Origin: Schmidtea polychroa
Taxonomy: Eukaryota
Assembly: GCA_044892525.1 (NCBI GenBank)
Contig: CM097886.1
Span: 17,608,001-17,672,000 of the forward strand
Direction of reading: 5' to 3'
Length of the DNA stretch: 64,000 nucleotides
The position numbers and the translations under genes were made by a program. Positions 1,186 through 39,568 of the stretch are shown here, in pieces. The notes under the pieces were generated by a model. It saw nothing but the letters and a program-made list of their open reading frames with translations. It searched no databases and had not been told where the DNA came from. How positions within the stretch are numbered: position 1 is the first letter of the stretch; each line of letters starts with the position of its first letter.

Positions 1186-1976
1186 TAATTAAATGAATTG
1201 TGAATTCCTGAATTACGCATATGCATTTCTAATTGTCCCAAACTGTAGTCGTTTTCTTTGCCCAATTTTCCGCTTACGACATTTAGTCTTTCTTTGTGGT
1301 TATTCATTCATTATTTCTGAACATTGGAAGTATCATTGCAGTAATTGAAGGTTTATTCCACTTCCCTTTAATTTGTAATTTCCAGTTCGAAATGCATAGG
1401 CATAATGGGAATCCGTGCATAATTTGATATCTTTTGTAATTTAGGTTTAGCCAACTATCATTTGTGTTCCATATTGTGATTAATTGAGTGTTGGGCTAAA
1501 TTTCAGAGTGGAGAAAACTGGAGCGAATAGAAAAGTAAACCTCGAATAATAAATAAGATAAAAATATAAAAATCTCACTAGTAAATAGAAAGGAACGATA
1601 AAAAATCAATAAGAGAATAAGATAAGGTAAAACAAACTGAATAAAACCCAATAAATCCCTTAAGATTTAGAAATAAAACGAGTTAAAACACACAACGGAT
1701 AAAATAGAAATAGAATAAGTAAAAAAGTGACAACAAATAAACGAGAAATTTAAGAAATAAATAAAAAATAAACCATTTTAAGTCTAATTAAAACAAAAAA
1801 TAATATTACAATAAAATAACAATAAGTCCGCAGAAAAATAGAAGAGAAAATAATAAAAATAAGAAAAAATAAATAAAATAATAATAAGAATAAGCCAAGC
1901 CATTAAAAAAATTTAATATACGATGATAAAAACATAAAAATAATAATAAATAGTAAAAATACAAACGAGTCGCGTC

Positions 1977-2101
1977 CTGATTGGACAGAAAATAATATAT
2001 AAAGAGCGACAAAAATCTGTAGAGTATCATTCTAACCCGAAACTCTACAGGTAAAAATTCATTTAAAATATTATCAATCATTCTAACCCGAAACTCTACA
2101 G
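1977..2101 (+). promoter_or_regulatory. LTR promoter: reverse CCAAT box, TATA box, Inr, short leader exon with splice donor and a 51-nt intron
   Basis: CTGATTGG 1977-1984, TATATAAAG 1996-2004, TCATTC 2027-2032, CAG|GTAAAA at 2050/2051, CTAAC...TACAG| ending 2101. The same layout is in the E2 LTR. Confidence 0.65.
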
Positions 2102-4406
2102 GACTTCAGGACCACTTAGCAGCTATTAGAACTCGTTTACGAAGCAATCCTACAAAACTACTTACAGCCGATAAGCCATTTTAGACTACTGGTTAAGAGC
2201 CTACGGAAAGTATCGAGAACTTAGACGACTTTATTATTCTATTCGATCCAGTTTTAAACTCAAAGGTATGCATTCGATTGATATTATGAATAGTTATTTG
2301 CTGTAAAAATGTTGAAAATAATGAAAAGCAGAATAAATTTTATTCAATAAATTTAATTTGAAATGAACAGCAGCCTTTTTCTTCATGGTACCGGCCACTG
2401 CACTATCTGGGACCTTCAAGCATGATGCGGCAGAGCGAAAATGCGTTGCGAAAGGGTTTGCGAGTATGCATTGCGACGAAGGGACGATATCAGTCGATTT
2501 TCGAAGTTGAAGAAGAATTGAGGAAATTGTCCAGTACGAAGGGACATGCATCTGAATGGCTCGGAAGACATCATGCTTGGAACCCAGCTGGTGGGGTCGC
2601 CGGGTAAATCTGATTTATTCATTTTATGTGTTTTACAAAATTTTTCCATTAATGTCGGAGTTGATTTTGGAATTGCTTGAATAGAGGAGTTGATCGTCTC
2701 CCATGACGGTGCAAGGACGGCGGCAGAAATGAGTGCCGTTCTTGGGTGGGTCATGAGAGGTGAGGAAACTCCGTGAGTCGAAGTATAGCTGAAGAGTGAA
2801 ATTTCCTTCATCGAGTGCGATCGACCACCGCTATCGTCGAAAATACACTTCTTAAAAGAGTAGTCGCGAAGATGAAATCATGAGAAACTCCAGGAGATCG
2901 TCGAATCAAAATCTTTTCACATTACATCCAGTCGCCGTTAATCGCATTGGAAAGTTAGAGTCCATGTCGTATATCCCTCGGGAAATTGGCACGAGAATAT
3001 CTGGTGATTGGGGATCTATAGCTGCGTAAAAAATCCAATGTTGTTCACAGAGAATGTCATAGAGCCCGAGATCTTCTAGAATACACATCGCCAGGACATT
3101 TACGACGAAACCCATAGTCAGTGTACTTTTGAGTTAGATTGTTGGTTATGAGGCCACTGATAAGCCTAGATTTTCTGAGAATAAAACAAACAAATCACGA
3201 GAAATTATCGGAATATTTACGATCGGCGTTAGAGAAACCGCAGTCGAATTTATCAGAAACTGTCAAACTAATTTCAGACAGATTATTATTCACCGGATTG
3301 TATGACTGAGGAAAACCTGACGAAGAGCGAGAGCGATAATCGTCTCTGCAATAGGTTTAGTGAATGCGTTGATAGAGAGATGTCTAAGAGTTGATAACGA
3401 CTAGAGTAAATCATCAGTTCTGACCCGCTAGTGAATTGTCGCGTAATGATTGGGTGGATACTTCTAACCAATCTCCCAGACAACTGAATCTTGATAATCC
3501 GTCTCATTTACACACTATCGGGAAATTCTTTCTCAGTAGACGGCAATTTATTCTAAATCTTAAATGGTTATGTGACACAATCGTGACGTAACAACGAGGG
3601 AGTTAATCGAGAAAATACTACTGTGTGCACAGGCGAAAGAAAGAGTTCACGCGCGTAAAGGCAGACACCCACTCTTAAACTACCATTCGAAGCAAACACG
3701 TCACCAAAACTGATTCACATGCTAGGGACAAATAACAACACTTTAGTATGCATTGTCATATATTGAATTATGTGCCGCCTTTAAACGAAAGACGATATTT
3801 TAATACAACCACATATTACGCAACGTCGTCATGACAACCTCACGGCGAAAATTTAAATAAAACTAAAAATCATAAGTTAAGTCAATAGGGAACCAAAGAT
3901 ATTCTGCTGTTAATTTTTTCCCTTTTTCCTATTTTATTTTATCTATTTGAACTACTTTAATATAACATAACGAGGTCTATTGAATATCGAATTTTTCTTT
4001 TATAATACTACTCGGTTTAGTTGTGTAGAACGTAGTAATGAGGAGTAAAATCGCAAACATCAGATAATGATAAGTAGAATAAAAGGGTTAGTCTTGTTAG
4101 TACTAGACTGAACAAGCATGAAAAGGGGAATAGTCAAACTCATAACACGTACCGATTGTAAAATGATGACAAATAAATTATGTCTAGAATTTTCGTTTTC
4201 TTCTCGTCAGGTGTTGATGGTTGAGGGGATGAATTTGAATGTTTAAAACTGGATGAATGTGGGTGCCGACTGATAATTTGGGCGTTTGAATCACCACTGA
4301 ATGGTTTGATTTCGAAAAAAGGGAACCTCATATGTAAAAATAGGAATAAAATCCTAGCCAATAAATTTTGTAAAATTAACAATGAAAGATTCTATAAACT
4401 CTTTAG

Positions 4407-5168
4407 ATGAATACCTCTACCAGCTCTGGAAAAAATCTTCGCCCGTGTCTCTTCTGCGCCGATAAAAACGCAGATATCGCGCAGCTCCACTTATACATCG
4501 GGGCACTGAAAAAGAGAATTGATCTCTACGAAGGCACGTGGTTCTCCCCGCCACAAATGCAAGAGGAACGCAAGAAAATTCTCCGATTAGAGCATTGCAG
4601 GGACAGCCTGCTAGAGGAAAGCCGTTGCCAGCGGCTCACTATCAAAGCACAATCGGAAGCCCTCCATAAGGTATATACGGAGGCAGAATTGGCCAAACGG
4701 GTCCGAGAATTTCCCGTCATCGAGAAGACCAATGTCTTCCCACCTCACCATCAGGCCTCCCAATCAACTTCAACAAGCTGCCAAAGGCATGGTACCTATC
4801 TGCCGCCCGTCCCGGCTCCAACCTTATCGAGTTATCAACCCTTGGTCGGTGGACCTACCGATCCCATCTTGGCTCCAATCTTGGTGGCACCAATCGGCAC
4901 CGCGAACGTGGAAAACCCTCCGTCTACTCGCAAACGGAAACGGCCAACTCGAGCCGAGAAGAATAAAAAACGCCGAGATGCGATGGCCGCACTCGAAGCG
5001 TCGCTATCGGTAGCCCAATCCACCATAAAGGAAATCTCTTCCAGCCATTCAATTCCAACGAAGGAAATTTTCCGTGTAATTCCCGCAGAGGGCATCAAAT
5101 ACGTCTCTAACCAACAATTGCCGGTCGACATCGACGAGATGCTTGCCGATGGGGAGTCCTTTGACTGA
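4407..5168 (+). CDS. LTR-encoded 253-aa protein (CxxC, coiled coil, Arg/Lys-rich motif, acidic tail), 5' LTR copy
   Basis: Intact ORF, homologous to the 250-aa E2 LTR ORF (LRPC..C.DKNA, EGTWFSP, EHCRD.L..ESR.QR..I..QSEALHKVY); preceded by TTTAG|ATG. Confidence 0.8.
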   Translation: MNTSTSSGKNLRPCLFCADKNADIAQLHLYIGALKKRIDLYEGTWFSPPQMQEERKKILRLEHCRDSLLEESRCQRLTIKAQSEALHKVYTEAELAKRVREFPVIEKTNVFPPHHQASQSTSTSCQRHGTYLPPVPAPTLSSYQPLVGGPTDPILAPILVAPIGTANVENPPSTRKRKRPTRAEKNKKRRDAMAALEASLSVAQSTIKEISSSHSIPTKEIFRVIPAEGIKYVSNQQLPVDIDEMLADGESFD

Positions 5169-5700
5169 CAGATTTCCATTGCCTTGATTCGGCAAGATTC
5201 GGAAGCGGACTTGAGTGTTTGTGAATATTGAACATTTATTTTTGTGACAGCCCCTTTTCCTTGTTATAAATGTAATTATTGTTGTGGATGTAATATAATT
5301 TTTATTGTCTCTCGGTGATTGTTTTTGGCATGCATGATATGGGATTAAAAGTGAACAATAGGACGATATCAGATATAGGTAGCACTACAGAGTCGTCCCC
5401 TTGGACCAGGGAAGGACCGAATGATGTGTAGAGGAACGGGTAAGACCTTCTACGGCGCCATGGAACCCGAACCGAGACAGGGTTAGGAGTAGTCTTAAGG
5501 CAGAGGCTCACCTGCTAACCTTTTCCGACCCGTGTGAGCAGCACCAACGTGGAACATCACCACGGGCTCATACGTGGGAATATGCATTCGATCATCTGGT
5601 GTATGTATGGGAAGTGCCTGAGCGGAACGATGACGCCTTGTATGAGTGAAGGTTGCGCGTGCATAATTTTTCTCTTCCCCACATACGCCAACATGATTTT

Positions 5701-5723
5701 TGGGGGCTCAGCCGGGATTTGAA
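5701..5723 (+). promoter_or_regulatory. Primer binding site, tRNA-Pro-like
   Basis: TGGGGGCTCAGCCGGGATTTGAA is complementary to a tRNA-Pro-type 3' end (...UUCAAAUCCCGGnnGAGCCC-CCA). It is separated from the LTR end by TGATTTT. Confidence 0.85.
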
Positions 5724-6154
5724 TATTGATTTGTTTGATTGTCTATTTTCGTGTTATGATGTGTTAGATTAACAATTTAATTAATTATGATGGAAATGGA
5801 ATCGGGGCCGAACGAATTATAGTGCAATGAAATGATACGAACTGTCTGAGTTTGAAATAGGGCAAGTGGTGAATGAAACGAACCTAAATGAGTTTGAATG
5901 AATATGATGAAGTATGATGAGAAAAGAAAACGGGAATTAGTTATTGTGGTTAATTTTAACTGGTTAAAATAAAAGGGGGGACGAAAGAAAGTAAGTGATT
6001 AAAGCGAAAAGATGAAAGGGGAATTTCAAGGATCGAATAAAATACAAAAGTTAAAACACTAACACATAAAAGTCAACGAATATTAAATACAAACATAATA
6101 ATATTATTTTTAATACCAGCAGGAACAAAATAATAACAACACATTCATTTAGAT

Positions 6155-6634
6155 ATGTCGGAAGCTAGACAACATCTACAACAGCTAAGCCGGTTCATCG
6201 AAATAGAAAATGATTCAATAAAAACATTAAAGGAAAAACTGAAACAAATAGAACTGTTAGAACAACAAAGCCACAACGCACCGCTGATATCCAAACAAAA
6301 CTTTCTAACCGACAGATTAGGATCAACAAATACCAACACTGACTTGTCTATTCATTATCAATGGCTTCAGCAACGTCTCGACGACCCCGCTCTGAACATC
6401 GAATATGTGAGGATACGCGAACAAGTCAAAACTCTGTCTCAGCGGATACGAACATCAATAGTAGAGAAAGCAGCGGCCTTGAGAACTTGTAACATTTGCA
6501 AGATGCGACCTGTCAAAACTCTGATTCTACCTTGTGGGCACCTTAGCCATTGTGACGAATGCGCCGCCAGTTTAATCCGTTGTTCTATGTGCACATGTGT
6601 AATAAAAGAGAAGCACACAATCTACTTCAGTTAG
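6155..6634 (+). CDS. Coiled-coil plus C-terminal IAP/MDM2-type RING finger protein (159 aa)
   Basis: CNIC...LILPCGH..HCDEC...LIRCSMC..VIKEKHTIYFS at the extreme C-terminus; ortholog in E2 at 60586-61071; no BIR seen. Confidence 0.85.
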   Translation: MSEARQHLQQLSRFIEIENDSIKTLKEKLKQIELLEQQSHNAPLISKQNFLTDRLGSTNTNTDLSIHYQWLQQRLDDPALNIEYVRIREQVKTLSQRIRTSIVEKAAALRTCNICKMRPVKTLILPCGHLSHCDECAASLIRCSMCTCVIKEKHTIYFS

Positions 6635-7227
6635 GTACGCGATCGTCGCTCGGTGAAGGAAATTGGATGATTGACAATTAGACTAAACATTTTGATATTT
6701 TTGTTCTGATTTAATTCGGTAATGTTTTATAATGATAGCATATATTATCTGTAATGTGGAGGAAATAACTAATAAATCCTTTTTGTGTATTCATTTCATT
6801 ATACGAAGTTATAAATTGATTTGTGTTGTTATAATTTTCACCATGAAGAAAGGGCATTTTAAAAATTTAAAATGATTATTTAAAGTGGAACTAGTCCCGT
6901 CATAGGGTTAAAGGGGGAATAAACCGAGCCACCTTCGGGAGGTACGATATTGGAAACCGTTGGGGAAGGGACAACCGATCACCCCGAGTAAGAGATGTAA
7001 GACGAGGTACCATCGCGAATATTGAAAAGTTTCTGCGGTATGGCTGATCACCATACCAATGTAGAAATGGATCAATGCGATCGTTTTGCGTTTTAAGCAA
7101 GGGGGGAAAGGGGAAACATTCCAAAGCGGTACAGATTAGGTCGACAAATAAAAGTAAAAATAGGAAGATGACAGTATAGAATAAAGACAGAAAAGGAACG
7201 GAAGCATGCAGAGTTTAGAGACATTAG

Positions 7228-7667
7228 GGCCGAGCTGTCGAAAAGTCCAGCCGGTCAGGGAAATTGAAACTGAGCTGTGAAAAGTCCAGCCAGTCGGGGA
7301 TAATAAGGCCGAGTTGTTGAATAGTCCAACCGGTCAGGAGAAGAAGATTGAGCTGTTGAATAGTGCCAGCCAGTCGTAAGATCGAGTTGTTGAATAGTCC
7401 AACCGGTCAGGAGAAGAAGATTGAGCTGTTGAATAGTGCCAGCCAGTCGTAAGATCGAGTTGTTGAATAGTCCAACCGGTCAGGAGAAGAAGATTGAGCT
7501 GTTGAATAGTGCCAGCCAGTCGTAAGATCGAGTTGTTGAATAGTCCAACCGGTCAGGAGAAGAAGATTGAGCTGTTGAATAGTGCCAGCCAGTCGTAAGA
7601 TCGAGTTGTTGAATAGTCCAACCGGTCAGGAGAGGAAGATTGAGCTGTTGAATAGTGCCAGCCAGTC
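7228..7667 (+). repeat. Tandem array (73-bp dimeric unit) of 12 bulged stem-loop subunits in the 5' leader
   Basis: GAGCTGTTGAA recurs at 7350, 7423, 7496, 7569 and 7642. Alternating subunits are GATTG-A-GCTG..CAGC-CAGTC and GATCG-A-GTTG..CAAC-CGGTC. Confidence 0.95.
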
Positions 7668-9054
7668 GTAAAGGCCTAAAGTAATAGTGAGATAGCATTT
7701 AAGCTACAATTTGATGACATCTAAATTACTAGTGAGATAGAATATTAAAGCTAGCTAGGAACGAATTGAATTTAAATATGGAAATTTGAATTTAGGGAAG
7801 ATTAAACGAGCTCGTGGAAAGTGATAATAAAACCCCGTTAGTGAGGGAGAAACGGAAAAAGGAAAATGAATCAGGAGATAATAGAAACAAAGAATAAGTA
7901 TGAATAGATGATGAACAAAAGAGGAAATAATTAATTAATTAAAAGGGATCCCAGATAAGTAGACAAAGTTCTACAGAATTTTTTTTGGTTTAAACCGGTT
8001 AAACGAATTTTGTTTTTGGTTCCAGAGTAGAACCGAGTAAAAGGAAACAGAGACGAAAGAGTAAATAAAATAGCGGAACCGCGTAAAAGGATTAAGGAAA
8101 ATATGGGGGGTAATAAGCAGTAACTGACAACGACCTATCGATATTATAAATGCTAACTATAGATAATTTATACGACTATATAGATAATTGTTACTACCCC
8201 AAATAGATAATTTAAAATCGACGAAAAATATGGGTTGATGGGTAATTACACTCCACGAAGAAGTGTATGAGGGGAAATGAAGAGAAGTATAACAGAGGCC
8301 CAAAAACGGTGTCTGTGCTTGAATATGGTAAAAAGGAATGATTGATTCGTGTAAGCAAATGCAACACGATATCATTTTTTCATTGTAGATATCCATCCAA
8401 CCAAGTCAATTCAGAACCAGCTCAAAAGGAATCTAGAGAATATACAAACAACCCAGGAAAAGCAATTCAGAACCCGCACAAAGGAAAAAACAAATCAATC
8501 CAAATACGGAGGACGACAACGACATCTTTATCTACGACGGAATTATCGAAATACTTAGCATCGACGTACTAGCAGAAGTCAATCAAGGACTCAGATATCT
8601 CCTCCGGAAATCAGCCGAGAAATTACGCAGAATATTCCTCGAAGAAAACACTATCAGAACCGAACTCGACCAATTCAGCAGCCGCTAACCGTAGAAAAAC
8701 CCACGTGGAAAGACAGAAAAGAGTAAAAAGAAAATCACGGATAAACCCAACCTTAGATCTTCAAGTAAGCCAGGAGACGTATTATTTTCAAGAGACGAAT
8801 TAGATCAACTCAAAAGAGGACGATCATTTAGGCAGCAGAGAGGAATATCACAAGGAGCAAAAAGACCCCACAAAACACCGATATACGATCAAGAAAACCC
8901 CACAGCCAGACATACGCCCAGTCGATCTAGAAGTAGAGAAAGCCTATCCGATATAACAAACAACCTAACCGGGTCAACAGAAGAATTATCCGTCTATAAT
9001 TTAGCGACATCGCTGGAAAATTTAAAAGAAACAATAGAGTTACAAGAACCAGTC

Positions 9055-12000: not shown

Positions 12001-14886
12001 TGGGAAAGGATGTGGAATGCGGAAAACAAAGAATGGGAAATCAGGAAAGGGATTTTCGTAGAAACAGACATTGGTGAGGCAGAAAGTGAATCAGAGGAAG
12101 AGGAAGATGAACCTCCAAAATACGAAGAGGACGAAATAGAATCGATATCGGACGACGAAAGCGAAACGGATGTTACGTCAGAAAGTGAAACGGAAACCAG
12201 ACATATTCATGCGATGAGAAAGAAAGAACGCGAATATGCCGATATGGACAGCGAAGAAGCGATGGAAGCTCGAGAACGAGAAGAGAAGGAAAGATATAAA
12301 CAATTAGGTGATATCTTAGCAACGGGAGCAAAAAATCAAAAACGTCAAGTAATAGCATTGGCTAACATCATCCTAAAGACATCAGAGAATATCCACAATC
12401 TAAGAGAAATGGCGAAAGCGATTGAGGAATACCGACAATATAACGAATGGTACCCAGAACAGCTAGAACAAATTATTAGGAAATGGAGAAACCAAGAATG
12501 GGCACAAGATACCCAGGAAAGGTATCGCATCCGAGTCAAGTACCCCGACAAGAGCATTGAGGATATAGAAGTACATCCAACAACCAAGATCAGAGAATTG
12601 AAAAAGAAATTAGCATACGAAACTCCATTTCACCTACAACTATTCGGAAAATCGTTGGATGATAATGCAGATGTCGGAATAACACCCATGAGATTGGGGG
12701 AGATCAATGTATTGACAATGGCAGAAACATTGGGAAAACCGATTAAAAGGAAGAGCAAATCCAGTAAACCTACGAAAGGTAGCTTGAGTACACCAAGCCC
12801 TAACAAAGTGGCGAGTAAATCGAATGAAACCGAGGAAATCGAGGAAATTATATTGGAAGACAGCGATGAAGGAGCTGGAGAAAGATCACCAATTCTGGTA
12901 AGATGGCCGACAGGAGCCGAAATGTGGACAACAAGCCAACCATCAACTAGCTATCAACAACCAAATAAGCTGAACATAGAGGAAATTGTCGATAATACGA
13001 CAGAAACCGAAATTGACGAACAATTTCAACGACAAAAAGGACCAACGAAAGCAATATCCGAAGGTCAAACGGACAAAATAATAGACGAATGGAATGAGTG
13101 GTTGAGAAACAACGATAGCTCATTGCCAAGAACAGATAACGAGAGAAACCCGAATTATGAAACGACAAGAGAAGCTGGAACAATGATGGAGAAACGGGCA
13201 AAAGGAAGACCCAAGAAGCAAGGAGAAAAACCAGAATTTAAAACCAGAGAACAACTGAAACAAGAACAAGGACAAGTCAGATTAGAGAAACTGGATAAAA
13301 TAGTGTGGGATCTAAAAGAGACCCAGCCAACAATCGAAAGAGGCGAAAAATGGATACGAGAGCTAGTAAAAGATATGCTAATAATAACGAACCCACAATT
13401 GCGACGATTATGGCAACGAAAAGTAGCAAGCGTAGATGCCAGACAGTTATGGAATACAATATCCGGAATAATTCCGAAATTAATCAAAGAGAAGACAAAA
13501 ACCACTAAAACCGATTGGGAAGAGACAAGAAGAGTAATTGAACAATTAACTTTAAACGCAAACGACGACGAACATCATTTAGTAGTATTAACGTATCTAA
13601 TGTACAATTTGATGGGATTAGCAGCAAGGAAAATACCTAACAAACAATTCGCAAATCATGTAGAAATGACCGTTACAATCATTGAAAATACAATCGAACC
13701 ACATATTATCCGCGCCGGTGGGTGGAAAAGACTCATACAAGCGCCACGAAAAAACGAGCAAGAGAGATCAATGCAAATTCGGTTGAAGAAATTGCTAAAC
13801 GAGCTGGAATGGGAATTGCCATTGAAAGACCCAGCCAGCAGAAAAGCGTCGATTAATTCACTAATGATGACCATGATGATATGGATGCTCTGCACCAGTG
13901 GAGCCGCGGGATTTACCATTTACGACTGTGACAATTCGATAATAGGAGAAAGGTACTCCCTGAGAGATATAGAGGAATGTAGACAGGCATCTCCGAATAA
14001 ATTAGATATAGTAAAAAAGAAAGTCTCCTATCACGTATACCAAGAATCAGATTTCATTAGAACGCAAGCTAGAGAATGCGTAGTATCGAAGAAAGTGTTG
14101 GCATATTACTGTGGACAATACTCATATTCAACCCTCATATTACCTGGATTAGATAAAGAAATAGTACCTATACAACGGGAAGACTGTAAAGAGCTTTTTA
14201 GAACCGGAGCGATGAGAATCAGGGATGGAGTAACAATACACGGACAAAGCGGAATGATCAAGACAGAAAGTATCTATGTCGCCGGACGAGTAAAATCAAC
14301 TGATGGATCATGTAACGGAGGCACATATACGATCAGAGGGGAGGTGATATCGGGAGTAGTAGTAATTGAGTCCTACACAGTAGAATTGAAGGAATATGAA
14401 GCACAATTCGACGCAAACAACTATCAAATGAAAACCAACCCAGCATGCAGAGCTACGGAAAACGTGTGTAGAACGGGAATTTCGACTATAATATATGAAG
14501 CTAACACCCAAAAATGCCGACTCCAATTGTTAAAAAGTGCCCTATTCAATGAAGTAAAAGGAGAAATTTACGAAAACGAAGACGACGATGAAGAGAATGG
14601 AAACGTAAGGATGCGAAATGGGAAACCAGTTCCACCATCCCCCAAAGAAAAGAGACTCACAACCCAAAAAACACCAACGGCATTAATTACAGATGATCCA
14701 GATATCGGTATGAGATTCATCAGAGAAAAAGAGACTACCAAATGTGACAGCATAGTATATCGGACGAACTACGCAGGTATCTACATGTCAAGGCAAGTAA
14801 TAGACCGAGCAGTGGGAAAGGTAGCAACAGAGGACGTAAAATTGTACCTGTACGCCAATAACAAAATGGACTTTTTATTTCATTGA
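9055..14886 (+). CDS. gag: E1 polyprotein, N-terminal part: Gag capsid, 3 CCHC knuckles, Ubl domains, Bcl-2-like domain, first half of envelope glycoprotein
   Basis: Retrotransposon capsid motifs (EPFNG..., Q...ESI..Y...LRRLA); CX2CX4HX4C x3 at 9808-9960; signal-like segment then FTIYDC at 13912. Ends at an in-frame TGA (14884-14886) where E2 has Arg. Confidence 0.92.
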   Translation: MMNVVKTDEYKEKFRGEPFNGNANKLATFITNFEVYIDVCGWTSEAISKRMPLFLCDSALEVYLEAKERNTKLDNWESIKTFLRKTFGASKPINQALGELASRKQRANESITLYASELRRLAKKAMNGNLPEENLIGYFIEGLRREEVRASVGCQMCKTLEEAIDLATRCELHLPAQMNVMQEEGRIATATVKTENGDNNNHEPKMNQFIPGAHQIFKPPQGRSNGNNSERNNSNNGNNFNNRRNMNDNKQCRTCGKPGHWDRDCYRNANCNRCGRRGHTENICQLRGCFNCGQPGHISRDCRERSQQQRPPQRNNNYAPNPQRQSNPSEGKQMNVMQEISQMKQMMQQMMRPRQEQVPQQTQNIRMMRSTENLNNYEVQQHAQEWQRLQAEEERIKRERIQQRQEQPLRINMMRMVREIKEQYCYNYGKNPRVVPMSEPEKPKETITAAKKENSTTPLKGNQRIQKIFWKKIKDKIERENEKTKTEAEAENNENEKQINHLNHDMIRELDSEELTILENKKLKKVPRMRNLRINMMRTTKKVLSTDDDEDYVSSLGGEMLQLNENIDQLREKIGADEDESESDVTSESEDGNIETKLRKEREEAIKQVKEILPVVVRNQEFIDIIPYRRFIQKIMKLERNEKDLIPNEEKAIIKKYMEKMKQAETTRYVIKIGTSKGLERIWIKNAVTDDLFDWIREHLGSSRKKEYLYQYQGEQIKPDMHLIDALIWPGETQILKLHKEKQPANIHEWAKDAKAEYDFNIKLKLEQIKQCTLRRNLDKLIKQIQEQVEDNWDLLITRRTADMHELMSRLRDTELLRMSDWRTINLIHKYGRLKETQPQKLEITIWLPNEEKRRIKMSNQSTVDDLVTKINQEITEKVRSESSDGMIDDVVLMYDKIIFRAEDDTSLSEMGMWDNHQIIRILPMDEFRTRDVTYQKEIRDRMKTLYQKSVEIIEIHQQWLKEKELQGKIKKLSTRSCRRTPWERMWNAENKEWEIRKGIFVETDIGEAESESEEEEDEPPKYEEDEIESISDDESETDVTSESETETRHIHAMRKKEREYADMDSEEAMEAREREEKERYKQLGDILATGAKNQKRQVIALANIILKTSENIHNLREMAKAIEEYRQYNEWYPEQLEQIIRKWRNQEWAQDTQERYRIRVKYPDKSIEDIEVHPTTKIRELKKKLAYETPFHLQLFGKSLDDNADVGITPMRLGEINVLTMAETLGKPIKRKSKSSKPTKGSLSTPSPNKVASKSNETEEIEEIILEDSDEGAGERSPILVRWPTGAEMWTTSQPSTSYQQPNKLNIEEIVDNTTETEIDEQFQRQKGPTKAISEGQTDKIIDEWNEWLRNNDSSLPRTDNERNPNYETTREAGTMMEKRAKGRPKKQGEKPEFKTREQLKQEQGQVRLEKLDKIVWDLKETQPTIERGEKWIRELVKDMLIITNPQLRRLWQRKVASVDARQLWNTISGIIPKLIKEKTKTTKTDWEETRRVIEQLTLNANDDEHHLVVLTYLMYNLMGLAARKIPNKQFANHVEMTVTIIENTIEPHIIRAGGWKRLIQAPRKNEQERSMQIRLKKLLNELEWELPLKDPASRKASINSLMMTMMIWMLCTSGAAGFTIYDCDNSIIGERYSLRDIEECRQASPNKLDIVKKKVSYHVYQESDFIRTQARECVVSKKVLAYYCGQYSYSTLILPGLDKEIVPIQREDCKELFRTGAMRIRDGVTIHGQSGMIKTESIYVAGRVKSTDGSCNGGTYTIRGEVISGVVVIESYTVELKEYEAQFDANNYQMKTNPACRATENVCRTGISTIIYEANTQKCRLQLLKSALFNEVKGEIYENEDDDEENGNVRMRNGKPVPPSPKEKRLTTQKTPTALITDDPDIGMRFIREKETTKCDSIVYRTNYAGIYMSRQVIDRAVGKVATEDVKLYLYANNKMDFLFH

Positions 14887-22929: not shown

Positions 22930-23097
22930 AAAGGATTATGACTGTATATAGATTGTAAAAAGTAAGTAGGTAATATTTATTTATATAACAGTACTCGATA
23001 TTTTTATATAAGCGCGGTATCAATAGTATATAATGATGGGGATAATTAATATGAAAATAAAATTAGATAAGGATTGAAAAGTATATATAAATTAAGA

Positions 23098-23457
23098 ATG
23101 GAACGAATAGGCGAGGAAGTAAATCACAGTACGACAACCGAGGAGATGTGGAAACAACAATGTGCAATGTTAACTCAAGTGATTTCGAATTTACAGGAAC
23201 AAGGACTCGCTGTACAAAGAAGCTTAGTCGAAAGTTTAAATAAAGGCTTCAGTTATGTAAGAATAATCGAAGACCAACGAATAAAAATAGAACAAATGCA
23301 GCGAGAGATAGACCGAATATCACGATACAGCCAGGTGCAAGAAGAGGAGTTAATAAGAATCGCGGAAGAGATGGAGCGAGAGGAGATAGAAGACTGGTCA
23401 GAATGGTTAACCAGCAGGGAAGAGGGCGGACAAGAGGCCGACTCTTCCAGCCAATAA
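23098..23457 (+). CDS. Small acidic coiled-coil accessory protein (119 aa from first ATG)
   Basis: Conserved with E2 43856-44215 (WKQQCA.L.Q..SNLQEQGL, EDWSEWL); the ORF track starts at a TTG, first ATG is 23098. Confidence 0.75.
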   Translation: MERIGEEVNHSTTTEEMWKQQCAMLTQVISNLQEQGLAVQRSLVESLNKGFSYVRIIEDQRIKIEQMQREIDRISRYSQVQEEELIRIAEEMEREEIEDWSEWLTSREEGGQEADSSSQ

Positions 23458-23546
23458 ATATAACCTAAAATAGCAATGTAAATAACTGTAAATAAAAATA
23501 CGAAACTGTACCAGTAACGAATATATGTATATATATAATTATAGAA

Positions 23547-24935: not shown

Positions 24936-25152
24936 AGAGACGAATAATTTTGTATATACTAATTGTAAATATCGGCATATATACCCCGTAAAATATTATA
25001 TAGTAGTGTAGAAAATTCCCCCGAATCTAATAAAGGTAAACTTAAGCGAAAACTCCTAAACCAACTCCTATAACGAATTGTAAAAATAAATAAAAACTAA
25101 GCCAAATATAAGCGTACAACGTTGAGTTAATGATATCGTTATTTAGACAAAG

Positions 25153-26190: not shown

Positions 26191-26362
26191 AGATAAGGAG
26201 AAAAGATAAAAAATATAAAAAGCGGGACCTGTATCCCAACAAAAAAATTATTAGTACGATAAAAATATTTACGGGACTGTAACCCTGATTATATAAAATT
26301 ACCTATAAATGTATAAGTATAAGCCGCACTGTAGCGCACTATTAATTGTAAATATTGTAGAA

Positions 26363-27073: not shown

Positions 27074-27132
27074 AACCAACAAAAAGCGATGTATATAAAT
27101 ATGTATAAAATAACTAAATGTATATCAGTATC

Positions 27133-27792: not shown

Positions 27793-28046
27793 CACTTCGA
27801 ACTGTAACTATTGACAAAATTCTTGATGTTTCATTGTTTTATGATAAAACCGGTCACCTTAAGTGACCACTGCTTGCTTATATTTGTCATTTTCTCTGTT
27901 TAATTAAAGTATTTTTTTTGTTGTTAATTTGATTTTAGGTCTGTGTGAATTTTGATGGTGAGATTAGGTGTCATACCGAAAGAAAGTATGATTTGAATGT
28001 ATTATGTGAATTGCGGGGCGCAATTTTAACGGGCCCCGGAGTGATT

Positions 28047-31000
28047 TGTTGGGCTAAATTTCAGAGTGGAGAAAACTGGAGCGAATAGAAAAGTAAACCT
28101 CGAATAATAAATAAGATAAAAATATAAAAATCTCACTAGTAAATAGAAAGGAACGATAAAAAATCAATAAGAGAATAAGATAAGGTAAAACAAACTGAAT
28201 AAAACCCAATAAATCCCTTAAGATTTAGAAATAAAACGAGTTAAAACACACAACGGATAAAATAGAAATAGAATAAGTAAAAAAGTGACAACAAATAAAC
28301 GAGAAATTTAAGAAATAAATAAAAAATAAACCATTTTAAGTCTAATTAAAACAAAAAATAATATTACAATAAAATAACAATAAGTCCGCAGAAAAATAGA
28401 AGAGAAAATAATAAAAATAAGAAAAAATAAATAAAATAATAATAAGAATAAGCCAAGCCATTAAAAAAATTTAATATACGATGATAAAAACATAAAAATA
28501 ATAATAAATAGTAAAAATACAAACGAGTCGCGTCCTGATTGGACAGAAAATAATATATAAAGAGCGACAAAAATCTGTAGAGTATCATTCTAACCCGAAA
28601 CTCTACAGGTAAAAATTCATTTAAAATATTATCAATCATTCTAACCCGAAACTCTACAGGACTTCAGGACCACTTAGCAGCTATTAGAACTCGTTTACGA
28701 AGCAATCCTACAAAACTACTTACAGCCGATAAGCCATTTTAGACTACTGGTTAAGAGCCTACGGAAAGTATCGAGAACTTAGACGACTTTATTATTCTAT
28801 TCGATCCAGTTTTAAACTCAAAGGTATGCATTCGATTGATATTATGAATAGTTATTTGCTGTAAAAATGTTGAAAATAATGAAAAGCAGAATAAATTTTA
28901 TTCAATAAATTTAATTTGAAATGAACAGCAGCCTTTTTCTTCATGGTACCGGCCACTGCACTATCTGGGACCTTCAAGCATGATGCGGCAGAGCGAAAAT
29001 GCGTTGCGAAAGGGTTTGCGAGTATGCATTGCGACGAAGGGACGATATCAGTCGATTTTCGAAGTTGAAGAAGAATTGAGGAAATTGTCCAGTACGAAGG
29101 GACATGCATCTGAATGGCTCGGAAGACATCATGCTTGGAACCCAGCTGGTGGGGTCGCCGGGTAAATCTGATTTATTCATTTTATGTGTTTTACAAAATT
29201 TTTCCATTAATGTCGGAGTTGATTTTGGAATTGCTTGAATAGAGGAGTTGATCGTCTCCCATGACGGTGCAAGGACGGCGGCAGAAATGAGTGCCGTTCT
29301 TGGGTGGGTCATGAGAGGTGAGGAAACTCCGTGAGTCGAAGTATAGCTGAAGAGTGAAATTTCCTTCATCGAGTGCGATCGACCACCGCTATCGTCGAAA
29401 ATACACTTCTTAAAAGAGTAGTCGCGAAGATGAAATCATGAGAAACTCCAGGAGATCGTCGAATCAAAATCTTTTCACATTACATCCAGTCGCCGTTAAT
29501 CGCATTGGAAAGTTAGAGTCCATGTCGTATATCCCTCGGGAAATTGGCACGAGAATATCTGGTGATTGGGGATCTATAGCTGCGTAAAAAATCCAATGTT
29601 GTTCACAGAGAATGTCATAGAGCCCGAGATCTTCTAGAATACACATCGCCAGGACATTTACGACGAAACCCATAGTCAGTGTACTTTTGAGTTAGATTGT
29701 TGGTTATGAGGCCACTGATAAGCCTAGATTTTCTGAGAATAAAACAAACAAATCACGAGAAATTATCGGAATATTTACGATCGGCGTTAGAGAAACCGCA
29801 GTCGAATTTATCAGAAACTGTCAAACTAATTTCAGACAGATTATTATTCACCGGATTGTATGACTGAGGAAAACCTGACGAAGAGCGAGAGCGATAATCG
29901 TCTCTGCAATAGGTTTAGTGAATGCGTTGATAGAGAGATGTCTAAGAGTTGATAACGACTAGAGTAAATCATCAGTTCTGACCCGCTAGTGAATTGTCGC
30001 GTAATGATTGGGTGGATACTTCTAACCAATCTCCCAGACAACTGAATCTTGATAATCCGTCTCATTTACACACTATCGGGAAATTCTTTTTCAGTAGACG
30101 GCAATTTATTCTAAATCTTAAATGGTTATGTGACACAATCGTGACGTAACAACGAGGGAGTTAATCGAGAAAATACTACTGTGTGCACAGGCGAAAGAAA
30201 GAGTTCACGCGCGTAAAGGCAGACACCCACTCTTAAACTACCATTCGAAGCAAACACGTCACCAAAACTGATTCACATGCTAGGGACAAATAACAACACT
30301 TTAGTATGCATTTTCATATATTGAATTATGTGCCGCCTTTAAACGAAAGACGATATTTTAATACAACCACATATTACGCAACGTCGTCATGACAACCTCA
30401 CGGCGAAAATTTAAATAAAACTAAAAATCATAAGTTAAGTCAATAGGGAACCAAAGATATTCTGCTGTTAATTTTTTCCCTTTTTCCTATTTTATTTTAT
30501 CTATTTGAACTACTTTAATATAACATAACGAGGTCTATTGAATATCGAATTTTTCTTTTATAATACTACTCGGTTTAGTTGTGTAGAACGTAGTAATGAG
30601 GAGTAAAATCGCAAACATCAGATAATGATAAGTAGAATAAAAGGGTTAGTCTTGTTAGTACTAGACTGAACAAGCATGAAAAGGGGAATAGTCAAACTCA
30701 TAACACGTACCGATTGTAAAATGATGACAAATAAATTATGTCTAGAATTTTCGTTTTCTTCTCGTCAGGTGTTGATGGTTGAGGGGATGAATTTGAATGT
30801 TTAAAACTGGATGAATGTGGGTGCCGACTGATAATTTGGGCGTTTGAATCACTACTGAATGGTTTGATTTCGAAAAAAGGGAACCTCATATGTAAAAATA
30901 GGAATAAAATCCTAGCCAATAAATTTTGTAAAATTAACAATGAAAGATTCTATAAACTCTTTAGATGAATACCTCTACCAGCTCTGGAAAAAATCTTCGC

Positions 31001-32251
31001 CCGTGTCTCTTCTGCGCCGATAAAAACGCAGATATCGCGCAGCTCCACTTATACATCGGGGCACTGAAAAAGAGAATTGATCTCTACGAAGGCACGTGGT
31101 TCTCCCCGCCACAAATGCAAGAGGAACGCAAGAAAATTCTCCGATTAGAGCATTGCAGGGACAGCCTGCTAGAGGAAAGCCGTTGCCAGCGGCTCACTAT
31201 CAAAGCACAATCGGAAGCCCTCCATAAGGTATATACGGAGGCAGAATTGGCCAAACGGGTCCGAGAATTTCCCGTCATCGAGAAGACCAATGTCTTCCCA
31301 CCTCACCATCAGGCCTCCCAATCAACTTCAACAAGCTGCCAAAGGCATGGTACCTATCTGCCGCCCGTCCCGGCTCCAACCTTATCGAGTTATCAACCCT
31401 TGGTCGGTGGACCTACCGATCCCATCTTGGCTCCAATCTTGGTGGCACCAATCGGCACCGCGAACGTGGAAAACCCTCCGTCTACTCGCAAACGGAAACG
31501 GCCAACTCGAGCCGAGAAGAATAAAAAACGCCGAGATGCGATGGCCGCACTCGAAGCGTCGCTATCGGTAGCCCAATCCACCATAAAGGAAATCTCTTCC
31601 AGCCATTCAATTCCAACGAAGGAAATTTTCCGTGTAATTCCCGCAGAGGGCATCAAATACGTCTCTAACCAACAATTGCCGGTCGACATCGACGAGATGC
31701 TTGCCGATGGGGAGTCCTTTGACTGACAGATTTCCATTGCCTTGATTCGGCAAGATTCGGAAGCGGACTTGAGTGTTTGTGAATATTGAACATTTATTTT
31801 TGTGACAGCCCCTTTTCCTTGTTATAAATGTAATTATTGTTGTGGATGTAATATAATTTTTATTGTCTCTCGGTGATTGTTTTTGGCATGCATGATATGG
31901 GATTAAAAGTGAACAATAGGACGATATCAGATATAGGTAGCACTACAGAGTCGTCCCCTTGGACCAGGGAAGGACCGAATGATGTGTAGAGGAACGGGTA
32001 AGACCTTCTACGGCGCCATGGAACCCGAACCGAGACAGGGTTAGGAGTAGTCTTAAGGCAGAGGCTCACCTGCTAACCTTTTCCGACCCGTGTGAGCAGC
32101 ACCAACGTGGAACATCACCACGGGCTCATACGTGGGAATATGCATTCGATCATCTGGTGTATGTATGGGAAGTGCCTGAGCGGAACGATGACGCCTTGTA
32201 TGAGTGAAGGTTGCGCGTGCATAATTTTTCTCTTCCCCACATACGCCAACA
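28047..32251 (+). repeat. E1 3' LTR (4,205 bp)
   Basis: Direct repeat of 1489-5693, followed by the TSD TGAG. Confidence 0.97.
30965..31726 (+). CDS. LTR-encoded 253-aa protein, 3' LTR copy
   Basis: Translation identical to 4407-5168. Confidence 0.8.
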   Translation: MNTSTSSGKNLRPCLFCADKNADIAQLHLYIGALKKRIDLYEGTWFSPPQMQEERKKILRLEHCRDSLLEESRCQRLTIKAQSEALHKVYTEAELAKRVREFPVIEKTNVFPPHHQASQSTSTSCQRHGTYLPPVPAPTLSSYQPLVGGPTDPILAPILVAPIGTANVENPPSTRKRKRPTRAEKNKKRRDAMAALEASLSVAQSTIKEISSSHSIPTKEIFRVIPAEGIKYVSNQQLPVDIDEMLADGESFD

Positions 32252-35178: not shown

Positions 35179-35712
35179 TGTTGGGGTTACACCTCGGCTG
35201 ACCGCTCTACCATATTGACGGGTCTAAGGGTTGATTGTCCATCTCGAATAAAAGGTGCCACCGATTTGTCAACCTGGAGTGAAACCCCACATAACTTTCT
35301 TCCAACATAGTGCCCGTGAATCACTTCACGTTGGTACTGCACTATGCAGGCGAGACACCAGCAAGCAGGTGAGCTTCTGCCTTAAAACTACTCCTTGCTG
35401 AGGCCTCGACTTCCCATTCACGACTGCCGATAGAAGGGCTTACGTCCATTTCCTTACACAACCACTTATCAGGATTCGCTGAACGCAAATTGGGAATTTC
35501 TCACTAGATCCTGCGGGTTCTCTACTCAACCCACTTAATTAAAGTCTAATTATTCATGAACGAAAACGTGTAAGACAACAAGATTTATTAATTTCAACGT
35601 TATGACACAAGGATTCAGCTGTACACTTTACTAATGTTTGTCGAAAGAAGAGAAAACATCATAATCAACATAGATCGGGTCCTTGTTCTTCATCCTGACC
35701 GCCACTGGGGTT

Positions 35713-36465
35713 CTATTGTTTCTCCCATTCAGCGTCGGCGAATAATTCGTCGAGGTTAAAAAACTCGGAAGCGTTCTCTTCCCACGTTACGCCAGCGGCT
35801 GATATGATTCGTGCTGAGGGTCCCGTTGTTAGGTCGATGGACACGTGAGAGTTACCACCGTTGGTTGAATCCTCTATTGATGGGATGTTTGGCTTTGTAG
35901 TGGCGCGTTCGCGCTGTCTCTTCTTGCGCTCTGCACGAGAGAGTTGTTTGCGCTTGGGTTTGCTTGAAGATGCCACTTGCAGAAGGGTGACAGGTACAGA
36001 TGGACTAGCAGTGGGGGGCTTACTGGTACCCGTGATGACAACATCTGGTCGCTTGGGGGACAATTCGTTTTCGACGCAGTCTCGGCACGGTCTCTTGAAC
36101 GGTGGAGATGGATTCGAGGAAAGGTTGTGATGAGGCGGAAAGATGTCATCGGCCTCTCGGATGGGAATCTGCACAATTTTTCGGGTTGTAACCGCCTGCA
36201 TGTAAACCTTATGCAGTGCCTCGGATTGTTCTCTGATTAGACTTCTTTGGGCACGGCTCTCAGATATTAGCGCGTCCCGGCAATGCTCGCTACGATCGAG
36301 CTTCTTTTGGATCTCCTTCATCCGAGCGGGACTAAACCATGTCCCTTCCAGCTCGTCGATTTTTCGTTTATATCGACCGATCTGGGCTTGAAGATCTTTA
36401 ATCACTGCATTTTTATCTGAGCAGGAGAAGCAGGGACGTAGAGCTGATTTGTTGTTTGATAACAT
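35713..36465 (-). CDS. LTR-encoded 250-aa protein, E2 3' LTR copy
   Basis: Homolog of the E1 LTR ORF; TTCTTTAG acceptor 10 nt before the ATG; AATAAA downstream (35584-35589). Confidence 0.8.
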   Translation of the reverse strand: MLSNNKSALRPCFSCSDKNAVIKDLQAQIGRYKRKIDELEGTWFSPARMKEIQKKLDRSEHCRDALISESRAQRSLIREQSEALHKVYMQAVTTRKIVQIPIREADDIFPPHHNLSSNPSPPFKRPCRDCVENELSPKRPDVVITGTSKPPTASPSVPVTLLQVASSSKPKRKQLSRAERKKRQRERATTKPNIPSIEDSTNGGNSHVSIDLTTGPSARIISAAGVTWEENASEFFNLDELFADAEWEKQ

Positions 36466-38870
36466 AATGGATGGCTAAAGAAGAAAACTATGGTGACTAT
36501 ATCTAAAAATTTCGGATCAGATACACGGTTTATCCGCTATTGGATACTTAGTGCTGGAAGAAAACAAGACGAGTCGACGAAACAGGATCCCTCCCTTCAC
36601 CCTTGATTACTAATATTTTACGTATCCTTTACAGAAAATTATTCCCCAACGCCCTGATTGCTTCCCTGACGAATGCAAATTATTTGTAAAAATTTTAATT
36701 TTCGTCTGTCGCGTTCGAGTTGGATTTCTATCTATCGCACATAACGGCAATTGACGGATTGGTTCATGCCGGAGTGAATAAACCTATTTCATTACAAATA
36801 CACTATACTACACTTCGTTTAAATTTCGCTGATTATTTGTTGTTATTCTAATGCAAAATAAGGTTTTTGGACCAAATGCAACTAGTAAAAACTTGCACCC
36901 TTACTTCAAGTAGCGGAATAAGTAACAACTCGTAATTTCGTATAAACTATACGTCACTATTTTATGATTACCCCTTATCCATACCATACGGTGATATCGT
37001 CGTAGAAATATAGCATCGTAAAAATATTGTAATTACATAATAATTTGTTATCGGATTTAGTTTTCTATTACGATACGTCATTTACAGGGAATATGAGAAA
37101 TTTAACTACAATATTACTAGCTATTTTATAACCCAAAAATTCCTGTAGATACTTTAGTTAATTTAAATTTGGCTCGAAGGCTACTACTATGATTTGTAAC
37201 ATCTAATTAGAATTACGATAAACCTCTACAACACTTAGGTAAAACTTCCTATGGTTTAGTTATAAAGTTTGGTTTGAATTTTCGATTATTAATTAAAATA
37301 CCCCTTCAACAATTTCGATTTTTATTTAGCATATTTAATTTAAGCAAAATTATCTTTAATGAGTGCACTTTAGAGAGTCCCTTATCTTAGTAGTCGGTTA
37401 CTGGTTATTTGGCTTATCTTTTTAGTGGTACGAATGGCCTTTATCAGTAGTGAAATTTAAGAGTCAGTCATCTGGAAGTCACATCTCATGTCAGCATTAT
37501 CTAATAGGACCACTGATTACTACTCACACACTAAGAATCCTAGAGAGGGTGACACATGGCGGCATTCCCTGCGGTGAGAGGCACTCGGAATGACTCTGCT
37601 GTTTCTCATGCATATTTCTGACCGGATGACGCTACTCATAGTTATGTTAGCAGCATGTCTGTATGTATGGGTGCCTATTCGATGGAAATTTTATCTGTAA
37701 CTATCAACCGTACTGAGCGAACTGCAAATGTTACATCGCGTGTCGATTCCCATCTGAGCTTATGATGTTGGATTTATTTACTACGACTCGTAATTTCCTC
37801 AATATTGGATGCTTTTGAACGATGGAAGATCTCTACGAACCAGCCAACTAGACTCTATGAAGCATATTTCAGTAGTGGATATTTCGACGCGACAGCATGA
37901 AAATTATTCAATGGGTATTACCAGATTTTGTTAATATATGTGATTGAATATAGTATTATTGTGGTTTTATGCTTTACTTTTCCTTTATTGTAAATTCCTC
38001 ATCATATGCTAAGATTTGGATGTCGCATCTGAAAGAGATGACCTAAATTAGATTTACTTTTTCAAAAATCTACCGAATGCAATTTCAACTTCTCGATATG
38101 TTAGAAAAACCAGCGATGGATGTTTAATGGTATTTTCCCCCACATGGTAAGTTCGGATTTATAGACAGAAGTGGCATGAATGTCTTATAAGACGACTCTG
38201 GACAATACAGAGTTAATATGAGAACTCCCTCAGTCGCTGTGAAGCACATATCCTATTTTCGAAAATTTCATAAGGTTTCCTTTCGGTCTATATTTCGGTA
38301 CTCTGACAGATTTTAAGTCCTTCAGCAATTGGACCCGTGAAGAAGCCTTCACATTTCGGCCCAATCTAGCTGCGTGATTGAAATACTCCATGTCCACCGG
38401 CTGAGCTCCCGAAGGCACCTCACACCATGACATGGAGTATCTCAACGCCACGTTTCTCGTTAATATTAGAAATCATAAAACTATCACTTCAAAATAAATA
38501 TCCATAAAAATTATGTAAGAGTTCACCTGTTACCAATAAATACTTTTAAACATTTAAATTATTTACTTTATCAAAATCGTTATTCAGGATCAAATGAAAA
38601 GAGAGTCTGTTTAAATTTAAAAGTTTAATTGCTCATTAAATATACACATTTACTATTAACTTCGAAAAACAATATCATAAATAAAAATCCCTTACTATGG
38701 AATTAGGCTGAATCGGAAAATTAACGTTAGTCGTTCCAAATTAGTCTGATGATAGTTTGTCGAATGTCGATTGCTGTGACTGAGTTCGAATTGCTGTGAA
38801 GTTTTTCGAATTAACTGTTGCTCTACTTGTATTGCTGATCCTTGAAATAAGTCTCCGTGATTGTAGATGT

Positions 38871-39002
38871 CTATGAAATGCTCGGGGTTAACAGTAAACA
38901 ACAGTAAACATTTTTCTTACCTATGAAATGCTCGGGGTTAACAGTAAATTTAATGTTTTTGGTAGTTGTATATATATCAAATTCTTATTTGTGCGGACCA
39001 AT
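38871..39002 (-). promoter_or_regulatory. E2 LTR promoter with leader exon, donor and 50-nt intron
   Basis: CTGATTGG (CCAAT at 38998-39002), TATATATA ~38969-38977, ATAG|GTAAGA at 38921/38920, acceptor TTTCATAG at 38871. Confidence 0.65.
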
Positions 39003-39568
39003 CAGAGTTGAGTACCGCTTATTTCTATTAATTTAATATAATTTTCTTGTTTTTAGGTTGTTTTTTCCTTATTTTCTTTATTTTTAATATGTTTTTCTAT
39101 TTATTTCCTTAATTTCCTTATTATTTCTTGAATTCCTCTTTATTTATTTGTCAACTTGTTCTATTTTAATCTTTTCTTAATTTTATTTTTTTTTTGTTTT
39201 AATTCTTATGTCTTACTTATTATTTTCCTTATATCTTATTCTATTTTATTTCTGATTTTATTTATTTTATTATTATTTTTCTTAATGTTCTACTTCCCTA
39301 CTTTCCTATTTTTCAACGATTAAATTTTCGACTCAGCCCAACAAATCACTCGGGGACCCATCAAAATTGCGTCCCGCAATTGCATAATTAACTTAATTCA
39401 TTCATTCAAAAAAAATATAACACGAACACGGAAAATTATACAACAATGATAAAAATTTTATTGTAAGATCAAGGTCAAAGCAAGACCAAGCAAGTATCAC
39501 TTAAGGTGATAGTTTGTACATACAATAAAAGTTTCCACATATAATAACACAAATGTTTGAATTAGAGT

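Follow-up and report, generated by a model that had tools for sequence, protein, structure and literature searches.

The long terminal repeats (LTRs) of two giant planarian retroelements carry, directly behind a CCAAT-TATA promoter, a unit of 25-28 nt that is followed by a GT and appears a second time, ending in AG, as the last bases of the short interval thus opened. The interval has the form of an intron whose 3' end repeats the exon in front of it. The best reading of this duplication, which we regard as probable, is a self-restoring intron; its start site, its splicing and its poly(A) site are deduced from the DNA. A sequence-only reading of the same region had left the duplication of the exon at the 3' end of the intron unexplained; it is the key fact. 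Coordinates are collected in Table 1.

The window, i.e. the whole 64-kb stretch of DNA that was analysed, contains two Burro-type gypsy elements of ~30 kb arranged tail to tail, E1 on the plus and E2 on the minus strand. The 5' LTR of E2 lies beyond the window end and was fetched separately (L031). Both elements have the domain order gag, fusion-glycoprotein domain, PR-RT-RNase H-IN and ankyrin repeats, with additional ORFs for RING, TRAF and others of no known type. A Pfam search located the env-like fusion protein (PF24664) between gag and protease and detected the ankyrin and MATH/TRAF cargo; BIR and BCL2-like motifs had zero matches to Pfam profiles at E<=0.01 among the E1 and E2 proteins. 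A giant frame of 4251 aa is present in E2, with a continuous gag-to-pol env-like part and a frame change near 45820, while the long frame of E1 is interrupted by a stop at 14884-14886. The LTR pair with TG...CA ends and target-site duplication and the order PR-RT-RNase H-IN are those of Ty3/gypsy (Metaviridae-type) elements; the size of ~30 kb, the multi-kb LTRs and an env-like protein between gag and pol in a giant frame are those of Burro/GYPSM1. By published descriptions, E1 and E2 match the planarian Burro/GYPSM1 kind, which is described with env in frame between gag and pol (PMC6431247) and, in a further account, as expressed and PIWI-controlled in planarians (PMC8532177).

Every long LTR encodes in U5 an open frame of 253 aa, unbroken in most of the 150+150 copies listed and with candidates in the genome in thousands. 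It belongs to no Pfam family, and a homologue search over 350 candidates yielded none at E<=0.001. The primer-binding site (PBS) of E1 is presumably tRNA-Pro-like; seven bases separate it from the LTR end (5694-5718), and the bases just 3' of it differ from copy to copy. The window contained no tRNA gene, and the stretch 1489-7300 no Rfam match. Both elements contain tandem arrays in the interval from the RING ORF to gag, with repeats of 73 nt (7225-7671) and 74 nt (59490-60008). Upstream of the 3' accessory ORFs, TATA-like and repeated TGTAAATA motifs without clear acceptors were noticed by eye (23450-23550, 26220-26310, 27030-27120); these ORFs may possess internal promoters, and the leader is perhaps not used for them at all. 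A broken remnant of a DDE_1 (pogo-type) transposase lies just upstream of E1 (66-1050). Elsewhere in the genome, tandem elements with shared LTRs, three LTRs in a row, were observed at C1:72.64-72.70 Mb, C2:107.32-107.38 Mb and C4:12.79-12.81 Mb, the last array being a pol-deleted derivative.

Table 1. Features of the two elements and of their LTRs; positions refer to the window.
Feature	Position	Strand	Remark
E1, whole element	1489-32251	+	LTRs of 4205 bp with 3 differences between them; 4-bp target-site duplication
E1 5' LTR	1489..5693	+	4205 bp, TG...CA ends
Inverted CCAAT box CTGATTGG	1977..1984	+	read in the E1 5' LTR
TATA box TATATAAA	1996..2003	+	read in the E1 5' LTR
Unit copy 1, putative exon 1	2026..2050	+	predicted start site 2026; branch-point-like motif and AG
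Intron 1	2051..2101	+	51 nt, GT..AG
Hypervariable junction	2073..2076	+	directly 5' of copy 2; putative first-strand-transfer site
Unit copy 2	2077..2101	+	supplies the branch point and the AG acceptor of intron 1; presumably acts as the start of R during reverse transcription
Exon 2	2102..2265	+	ATG-poor leader; relic unit-like pieces, seen by eye
Donor 2 and intron 2	2266..2370	+	105 nt; candidate major splice donor; exact loss in one related element
AATAAA and U-rich downstream motif	2346..2388	+	candidate poly(A) site; R/U5 border near 2368, from spacing only
LTR-encoded 253-aa open frame, E1	4407..5168	+	acceptor-like AG at 4210
Primer-binding site	5701..5718	+	557 LTR-end+PBS matches in the genome
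E1 3' LTR	28047..32251	+	unit copy 1 28584-28608, intron 1 28609-28659
E2 3' LTR	35179..39343	-	~4165 bp
LTR-encoded 253-aa open frame, E2	35713-36474	-	U5 ORF
E2 donor 2, ATTAAA and U-rich motif	38601..38695	-	donor 2 at 38695, ATTAAA at 38629, U-rich motif at 38601; from sequence
E2 unit copy 2	38898-38871	-	28 nt
E2 intron 1	38920-38871	-	50 nt
E2 unit copy 1	38948-38921	-	28 nt

The CCAAT and TATA boxes, the duplicated unit, the GT at 2051 and the AG-ended copy 2 were all found where the sequence-only reading had placed them, and its GT..AG intervals of 51 nt in E1 and 50 nt in E2 were borne out. The succession of unit, GT and AG-ended unit is the same in the 3' LTR of E1 (28584-28659), and the 5' LTR of E2 is identical in layout to the 3' LTR. 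In 100 block-dinucleotide shuffles of the window, no 20-mer was found that ends in AG, precedes a GT and recurs within 100 nt; in the unshuffled window this pattern was present at the three LTR sites and in five matches inside a 74-nt tandem array. A leader exon at this place had been proposed with a length of ~22 nt. The exon stands, its length is better given as 25 nt (2026-2050), because in 107 of 109 LTRs the duplication sets in 28-31 nt downstream of the first T of the TATA box, the position expected for a start site. From this spacing and layout we infer, in agreement with the earlier proposal, a promoter with a start ~537 nt into the LTR, genuine splice sites and an R+U5 of ~3.67 kb. 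Four runs available as contigs only, three of them merely guessed to be RNA, were compared with 22950-32300; none of the joints listed (15 of 58) crossed intron 1 or intron 2. One X7 contig covers U3 through copy 2 with no skip, though contigs give no starts, ends or levels. The depth of the X6 contigs is high over U3 and near zero after 28566, where family divergence too lowers the depth; neither contig observation is used here as evidence.

For a wider view, LTRs were fetched from the same 781-Mb genome via DNA similarity, the LTR-encoded ORF and the PBS; the sample is biased to relatives of E1 and E2, and its PBS set to contig C1. It comprised 191 non-duplicate loci, among them 124 two-unit LTRs and 25 one-unit LTRs; the rest had no promoter of this type and consisted of a short-LTR lineage, truncated or interrupted LTRs and internal stretches. 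The two-unit LTRs fell into 18 clusters representing ~15 distinct unit types (three clusters are 1-nt indel variants), with a median of 10/20 letters in common between types. The architecture is conserved despite different sequence, as had been said of E1 and E2 alone, and this holds far more widely than for two elements. Within an LTR the last 20 nt of the copies were identical in 119 of the 124 cases (LTR pairs counted twice) and unequal in five. With one LTR taken per cluster, copy 1 equalled copy 2 in 17-18 of 18 clusters at the positions -24 to -1 from the AG; beyond this stretch the identity was 15 of 18 at -25 and, at chance-like levels, 4-11 further 5' and 1-9 after the AG. The presumed start site and the donor mark the two limits of the identity. 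Four LTRs (L006-L009) show the same single substitution in both copies.

The splice-site-like features were retained throughout. Units measured 25-28 nt, and all 18 clusters possess GT donors, a terminal AG and, 14-18 nt before it, a loose branch-point-like motif. The unit-to-unit interval was 45-51 nt in 123 of 124 two-unit LTRs. Short-intron modes of ~32 and ~58 nt are given for a parasitic flatworm, not for this host (PMC4040987), and the 45-nt floor is an unbenchmarked value. A (G/T/A)ATTGG box precedes the TATA box in all two-unit LTRs, but this box formed part of the search rule. Nine of 12 PBS-anchored long LTRs were in the two-unit state, the other three having no promoter within 7 kb, and this state prevails in every long-LTR type sampled. 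In four LTRs (L139, L145, L147, L155) a GT follows directly after copy 2, where splicing of intron 1 would rebuild a donor in a manner reminiscent of recursive splicing.

The duplication is absent from an abundant lineage with short LTRs of ~1.6 kb (L138, L143, L150, L160, L178-L179), which has the same PBS and LTR ends, a CCAAT-TATA promoter, donor 2 and a poly(A)-like signal; none of 28 PBS-anchored loci without the LTR ORF contained a duplicated unit. Intron 1 is therefore not needed by every relative. One short-LTR copy examined was gag-only, with a gag-like ORF of 877 aa, and a tandem row of five copies, ~13.5 kb apart, occupies C1 near 77.27-77.32 Mb. A part of U5 that is richer in G+C (~2440-2580; in E2 38450-38330 on the minus strand; also in L143) appeared by eye to be conserved between E2 and the short-LTR lineage, unlike the sequence on either side, and is a candidate for a packaging or dimerisation RNA structure.

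The two copies differ in the bases that precede them. The 4 nt before copy 1 were invariant in all 35 sequences with the E1 unit and all 27 with the E2 unit, and occurred in 2 variants among 12 sequences of a third family. Before copy 2, the same three groups had 13 (n=35), 8 and 5 variants, including one-base additions and short repeats of the first letters of the unit. The junction base was a G in 16 of 45 haplotypes (6.5 expected) and a C in 14 of 49 (5.6 expected), with p-values of 4e-4 and 9e-4 that overstate independence, the haplotypes being related. As a sign of cap copying the signal is not clean: C is enriched as much as G, and several of the Cs belong to short repeats of the letters with which the unit begins. 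The junction variant was the same in both LTRs of 20 out of 20 pairs and was therefore made before integration. The run of bases right after the PBS, another junction of reverse transcription, is likewise variable. We take the hypervariable, G/C-rich bases 5' of copy 2, common to both LTRs, as the probable mark of the first-strand-transfer junction. By the textbook rule for LTRs the transfer junction coincides with the transcription start; here the hot spot is at copy 2 and none is found at TATA+30, the presumed start. Although the promoter is directed at copy 1, the 5' end of the copied RNA thus seems to arrive at copy 2. Removal of 2051-2101 makes the 5' end identical to the sequence from 2077 onward, and splicing therefore reconciles a promoter at copy 1 with a junction at copy 2. 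A comparable mark is described for HIV-1, whose reverse transcriptase is reported to copy the cap G and to misalign exactly at the U3-R junction (PMC12172438). One-base changes to G and slips of 1-3 nt directly upstream of the first RNA base are shared features; the HIV-1 mark is at the start site (PMC12172438), the present one ~50 nt downstream, at copy 2 and beyond a donor.

The cycle that we propose would begin with transcription from the first base of copy 1 in the 5' LTR, as the TATA spacing and the edge of the duplication suggest. The intron of 45-51 nt would then be spliced out of the RNA to be packaged, whose 5' end, copy 1 joined to exon 2, is letter for letter the sequence of copy 2 and exon 2. 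The 3'-LTR-derived intron at the 3' end of the RNA would usually stay unspliced; this is the least secure step. Minus-strand strong-stop DNA of ~3.6 kb, made from the spliced 5' end, would anneal at copy 2 of the 3' end, and reverse transcriptase would go on to copy the 5' half of the intron, then copy 1 and U3. New LTRs would regain the intron, copy 2 would be overwritten by the sequence of copy 1 in each cycle, and end-of-template errors would fall just 5' of copy 2, consequences that are seen in the genome copies. With the transfer at copy 2, the functional U3/R junction would therefore lie ~50 nt downstream of the start site, and exon 1 would have to carry the branch point and the AG of the intron because it templates them. 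An intron-less element would arise when the 3' intron is also spliced or when the transfer lands on copy 1.

Most likely the intron is kept for a cap-proximal splice that boosts expression or export, or that helps the RNA of the 5' LTR to pass the poly(A) signal downstream of donor 2. Behind intron 1 of the 3' copy lies a normal-looking terminal exon of ~270 nt, and nothing found accounts for the presumed escape of this intron from splicing. Our guess is that copy 1 downstream of U3 is taken for an acceptor and its donor thereby masked, which is impossible next to the cap. A stricter version of the self-restoring intron, offered as a tentative conjecture, supposes an obligately spliced genome: packaged RNA would always be without intron 1, the intron would exist only at the RNA 3' end and be rebuilt in each reverse transcription, and the exon mimicking an acceptor would be the switch between the LTRs, with splicing where it is adjacent to the cap and, behind U3, recognition as a 3' splice site, by which its own donor would be blocked and the poly(A) site freed. 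If true, this would be a natural retroelement in which splicing uncouples the start site from the U3/R border, and also a recorder, each insertion writing start site and cap into the genome.

Exact loss of intron 1 was found in 25 LTRs, with L110 counted in and the false calls L111 and L148 left out, and intron-less LTRs amount to ~7-11% overall, with repeated losses. For the E1 unit, 7 LTRs without intron 1 stand against 88 with it; in a tree of 55 rows the 8 intron-less rows required 7 changes, the sole pair being the LTRs of a single element. Among LTRs with the E2 unit, 16 lacked the intron (12 as both LTRs of 6 elements, 4 single), with 7-9 changes in a tree of 52 rows. The loss of ~11% calculated for E2 is rough since the with-intron count of 44 is too low, the last letter of the search pattern excluding C; E2-like LTR ORFs at >=92% identity number about 140. 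Two intron-less elements share one unresolved group of the E2 tree, and a limited spread of intron-less E2 copies may have taken place. As judged from the trees, the intron-less LTRs are recurrent products and not a lineage. Frequent recurrent loss, yet prevalence of the two-unit state, argues for selection for the intron or for its regain from co-packaged RNA. Loss of intron 1 via splicing and via deletion between direct repeats give the same sequence and are inseparable.

Intron 2 provides indirect evidence that the RNA is spliced. In one element (L096/L205, its two LTRs) the 105-nt GT..AG interval is gone exactly, with a 3-nt microhomology and with intron 1 retained; therefore processed RNA was copied and intron 1 came through. 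Local alignments of the fetched LTRs contained no GT..AG deletions besides those of introns 1 and 2. The start of exon 2 was cut back to a downstream AG, with intron 1 kept, in three of four distinct events found by script and additionally, by eye, in L051; this is as expected for use of an alternative acceptor followed by transfer to copy 2, and microhomology also allows slippage. Three units occur in both LTRs of a further element (L100/L207), where the first two are alike and the third differs; this fits a strand transfer that placed copy 1 on copy 2, the template being an RNA no longer spliceable because its intron was too short. Six odd copies were checked for a partner LTR, which was located for two. 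Relic unit-like pieces were observed by eye 9-17 nt behind copy 2 in L074 and L187 and in exon 2 of L030, L090, L091 and L110. In L074 and L187 a whole unit of another family follows copy 2, which suggests strand transfer between co-packaged families via microhomology.

Behind copy 2, exon 2 is poor in ATG: seven were counted in 11 families where 25.4 were expected, six of them from one family with a doubtful exon end. Donor 2, of the GTATG/GTAAG type, recurs in most long-LTR families, has a GT at the matching place in the short-LTR lineage, and is followed after 80-125 nt by a poly(A)-like signal of conserved position. Twelve clusters were compared, one of them mis-anchored; among the 11 correctly anchored, A(A/T)TAAA occurred 19-35 nt before a U-rich motif in nine and was absent in two, and in the same 11 it never occurred 55-140 nt upstream of that motif. 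Not every family retains the AG of intron 2, while the spacing of hexamer and U-rich motif is kept. This would place the poly(A) site near 2368, giving an R of ~300 nt and a U5 of ~3.3 kb. An R ending 10-20 nt after copy 2 had been considered and was dropped, no signal being present there.

The sequence-only reading had regarded the donor at 2050/2051 as a common leader for subgenomic mRNAs. Taken as the main function, this would mean an exon 1 joined to several acceptors, with the duplication incidental and the packaged RNA unspliced. The ATG-poor leader, the acceptor-like AGs before the LTR ORF (4210) and the RING ORF, and the donor that splicing would rebuild where a GT follows copy 2 (the L139 group and L155) speak in its favour. 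Among the joints listed from the contig data, however, no junction from 2050 to a distant acceptor was seen, and an unspliced packaged RNA would put the transfer junction at copy 1 instead of copy 2 and give copy 2 no reason to track copy 1. Donor 2 (2266) is the better candidate for the common or major splice donor, because its use is shown in one element (L096/L205), over a longer distance than donor 1, and because it recurs across families and precedes the poly(A)-like signal. As an account of the duplication the common leader is improbable; a side role of donor 1 in this function may exist.

The homogenised copies, the junction mark and the occasional loss would equally be predicted without any splicing, if reverse transcriptase on unspliced 5' RNA skipped from copy 2 to copy 1 in most cycles, as in a direct-repeat deletion, and then transferred onto copy 2. 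Skipping has no need for GT, AG, branch motif and 45-nt floor, all of which are kept in ~15 unit types; it would have to succeed nearly every time on a repeat of 25 nt, and the genomic loss of intron 2 shows splicing of such LTR RNA. We consider it an unlikely explanation as well. If instead the packaged RNA came from a second start site at copy 2, with copy 1 a promoter element or the start of another RNA, the position of the junction mark would be explained, and copy 2 has the same initiator-like letters as copy 1. A start there and a spliced 5' end look identical from reads alone. Yet the TATA box lies 30 nt before copy 1, the sequence 30 nt before copy 2 being the end of copy 1 and the donor, and a copy 1 that was plain U3 would be free to diverge, which it does not; the chance of this alternative is slim.

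Gene conversion or slippage at the DNA level between neighbouring repeats after integration could also keep the copies alike, short direct repeats do recombine, and single intron-less LTRs exist (4 of 16 for E2). The variants common to both LTRs in 20 of 20 pairs predate integration and largely refute this idea, and the sharp edges of identity at start site and donor and the one-sided error hot spot add to making it very improbable. Spliced-leader trans-splicing, known in flatworms, onto copy 1 or copy 2 is barely credible: both copies resemble 3' splice sites, and a leader of ~22-25 nt followed by GT resembles an SL RNA, but none of the fetched LTRs has a foreign common leader in front of either copy, and the ~15 unit types, compared with each other, differ between families instead of being one host leader.

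Reverse transcription normally causes the loss of spliced introns from retroelements, and R by definition starts at the cap site. If the self-restoring intron is true, one duplication of 25 nt and ordinary strand transfer would break both rules. It would also provide a mechanism for concerted evolution by reverse transcription, and would make start sites and end errors of reverse transcriptase readable from genome copies. Other LTR elements may be screened simply for an exon 1 that is repeated at the end of a cap-proximal intron. The anatomy of the Burro LTR would comprise a U3 of ~540 nt and, as predicted parts, an R of ~300 nt and a U5 of ~3300 nt, with a very long strong-stop DNA.

The element family is known. 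Burro/GYPSM1 has ~30 kb, long LTRs and one giant polyprotein with gag, an in-frame env-like part between gag and pol, PR-RT-RH-IN, ankyrin and MATH/TRAF (PMC6431247); in the elements described here MATH/TRAF has an ORF of its own, downstream of pol. That paper's passages on Burro/GYPSM1 mention no promoter, leader intron or duplicated exon, and the word intron turns up in it solely in a reference title (PMC6431247). In the full texts searched, which comprised few subscription papers, no natural LTR intron restored via exon duplication was found described; a prior description of the duplication or of the mechanism may exist. In foamy virus, R contains the major splice donor, which precedes the poly(A) signal (PMC3694450), and U1 binding suppresses the poly(A) site of the 5' LTR. 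A donor upstream of a poly(A)-like signal inside both LTRs, here as a sequence layout, and two LTRs that must be handled differently are common to both systems; the foamy virus genome, however, loses no leader intron and has no duplication restoring one (PMC3694450). The nearest known mechanisms are engineered split-intron retroviral vectors and Penelope-like elements. The vectors carry a donor at the U3/R border of the 3' LTR, and this donor reaches the 5' LTR by copying (PMC3182074, a secondary description). They are man-made, work for one round and are meant to destroy packaging, while in the planarian elements a natural, whole short intron would be rebuilt in every cycle via exon duplication. 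Penelope-like elements likewise carry a spliceosomal intron through retrotransposition (PMC3846280); for these an antisense or unspliced template has been proposed, with no LTR strand transfer and no copy of the exon at the intron end.
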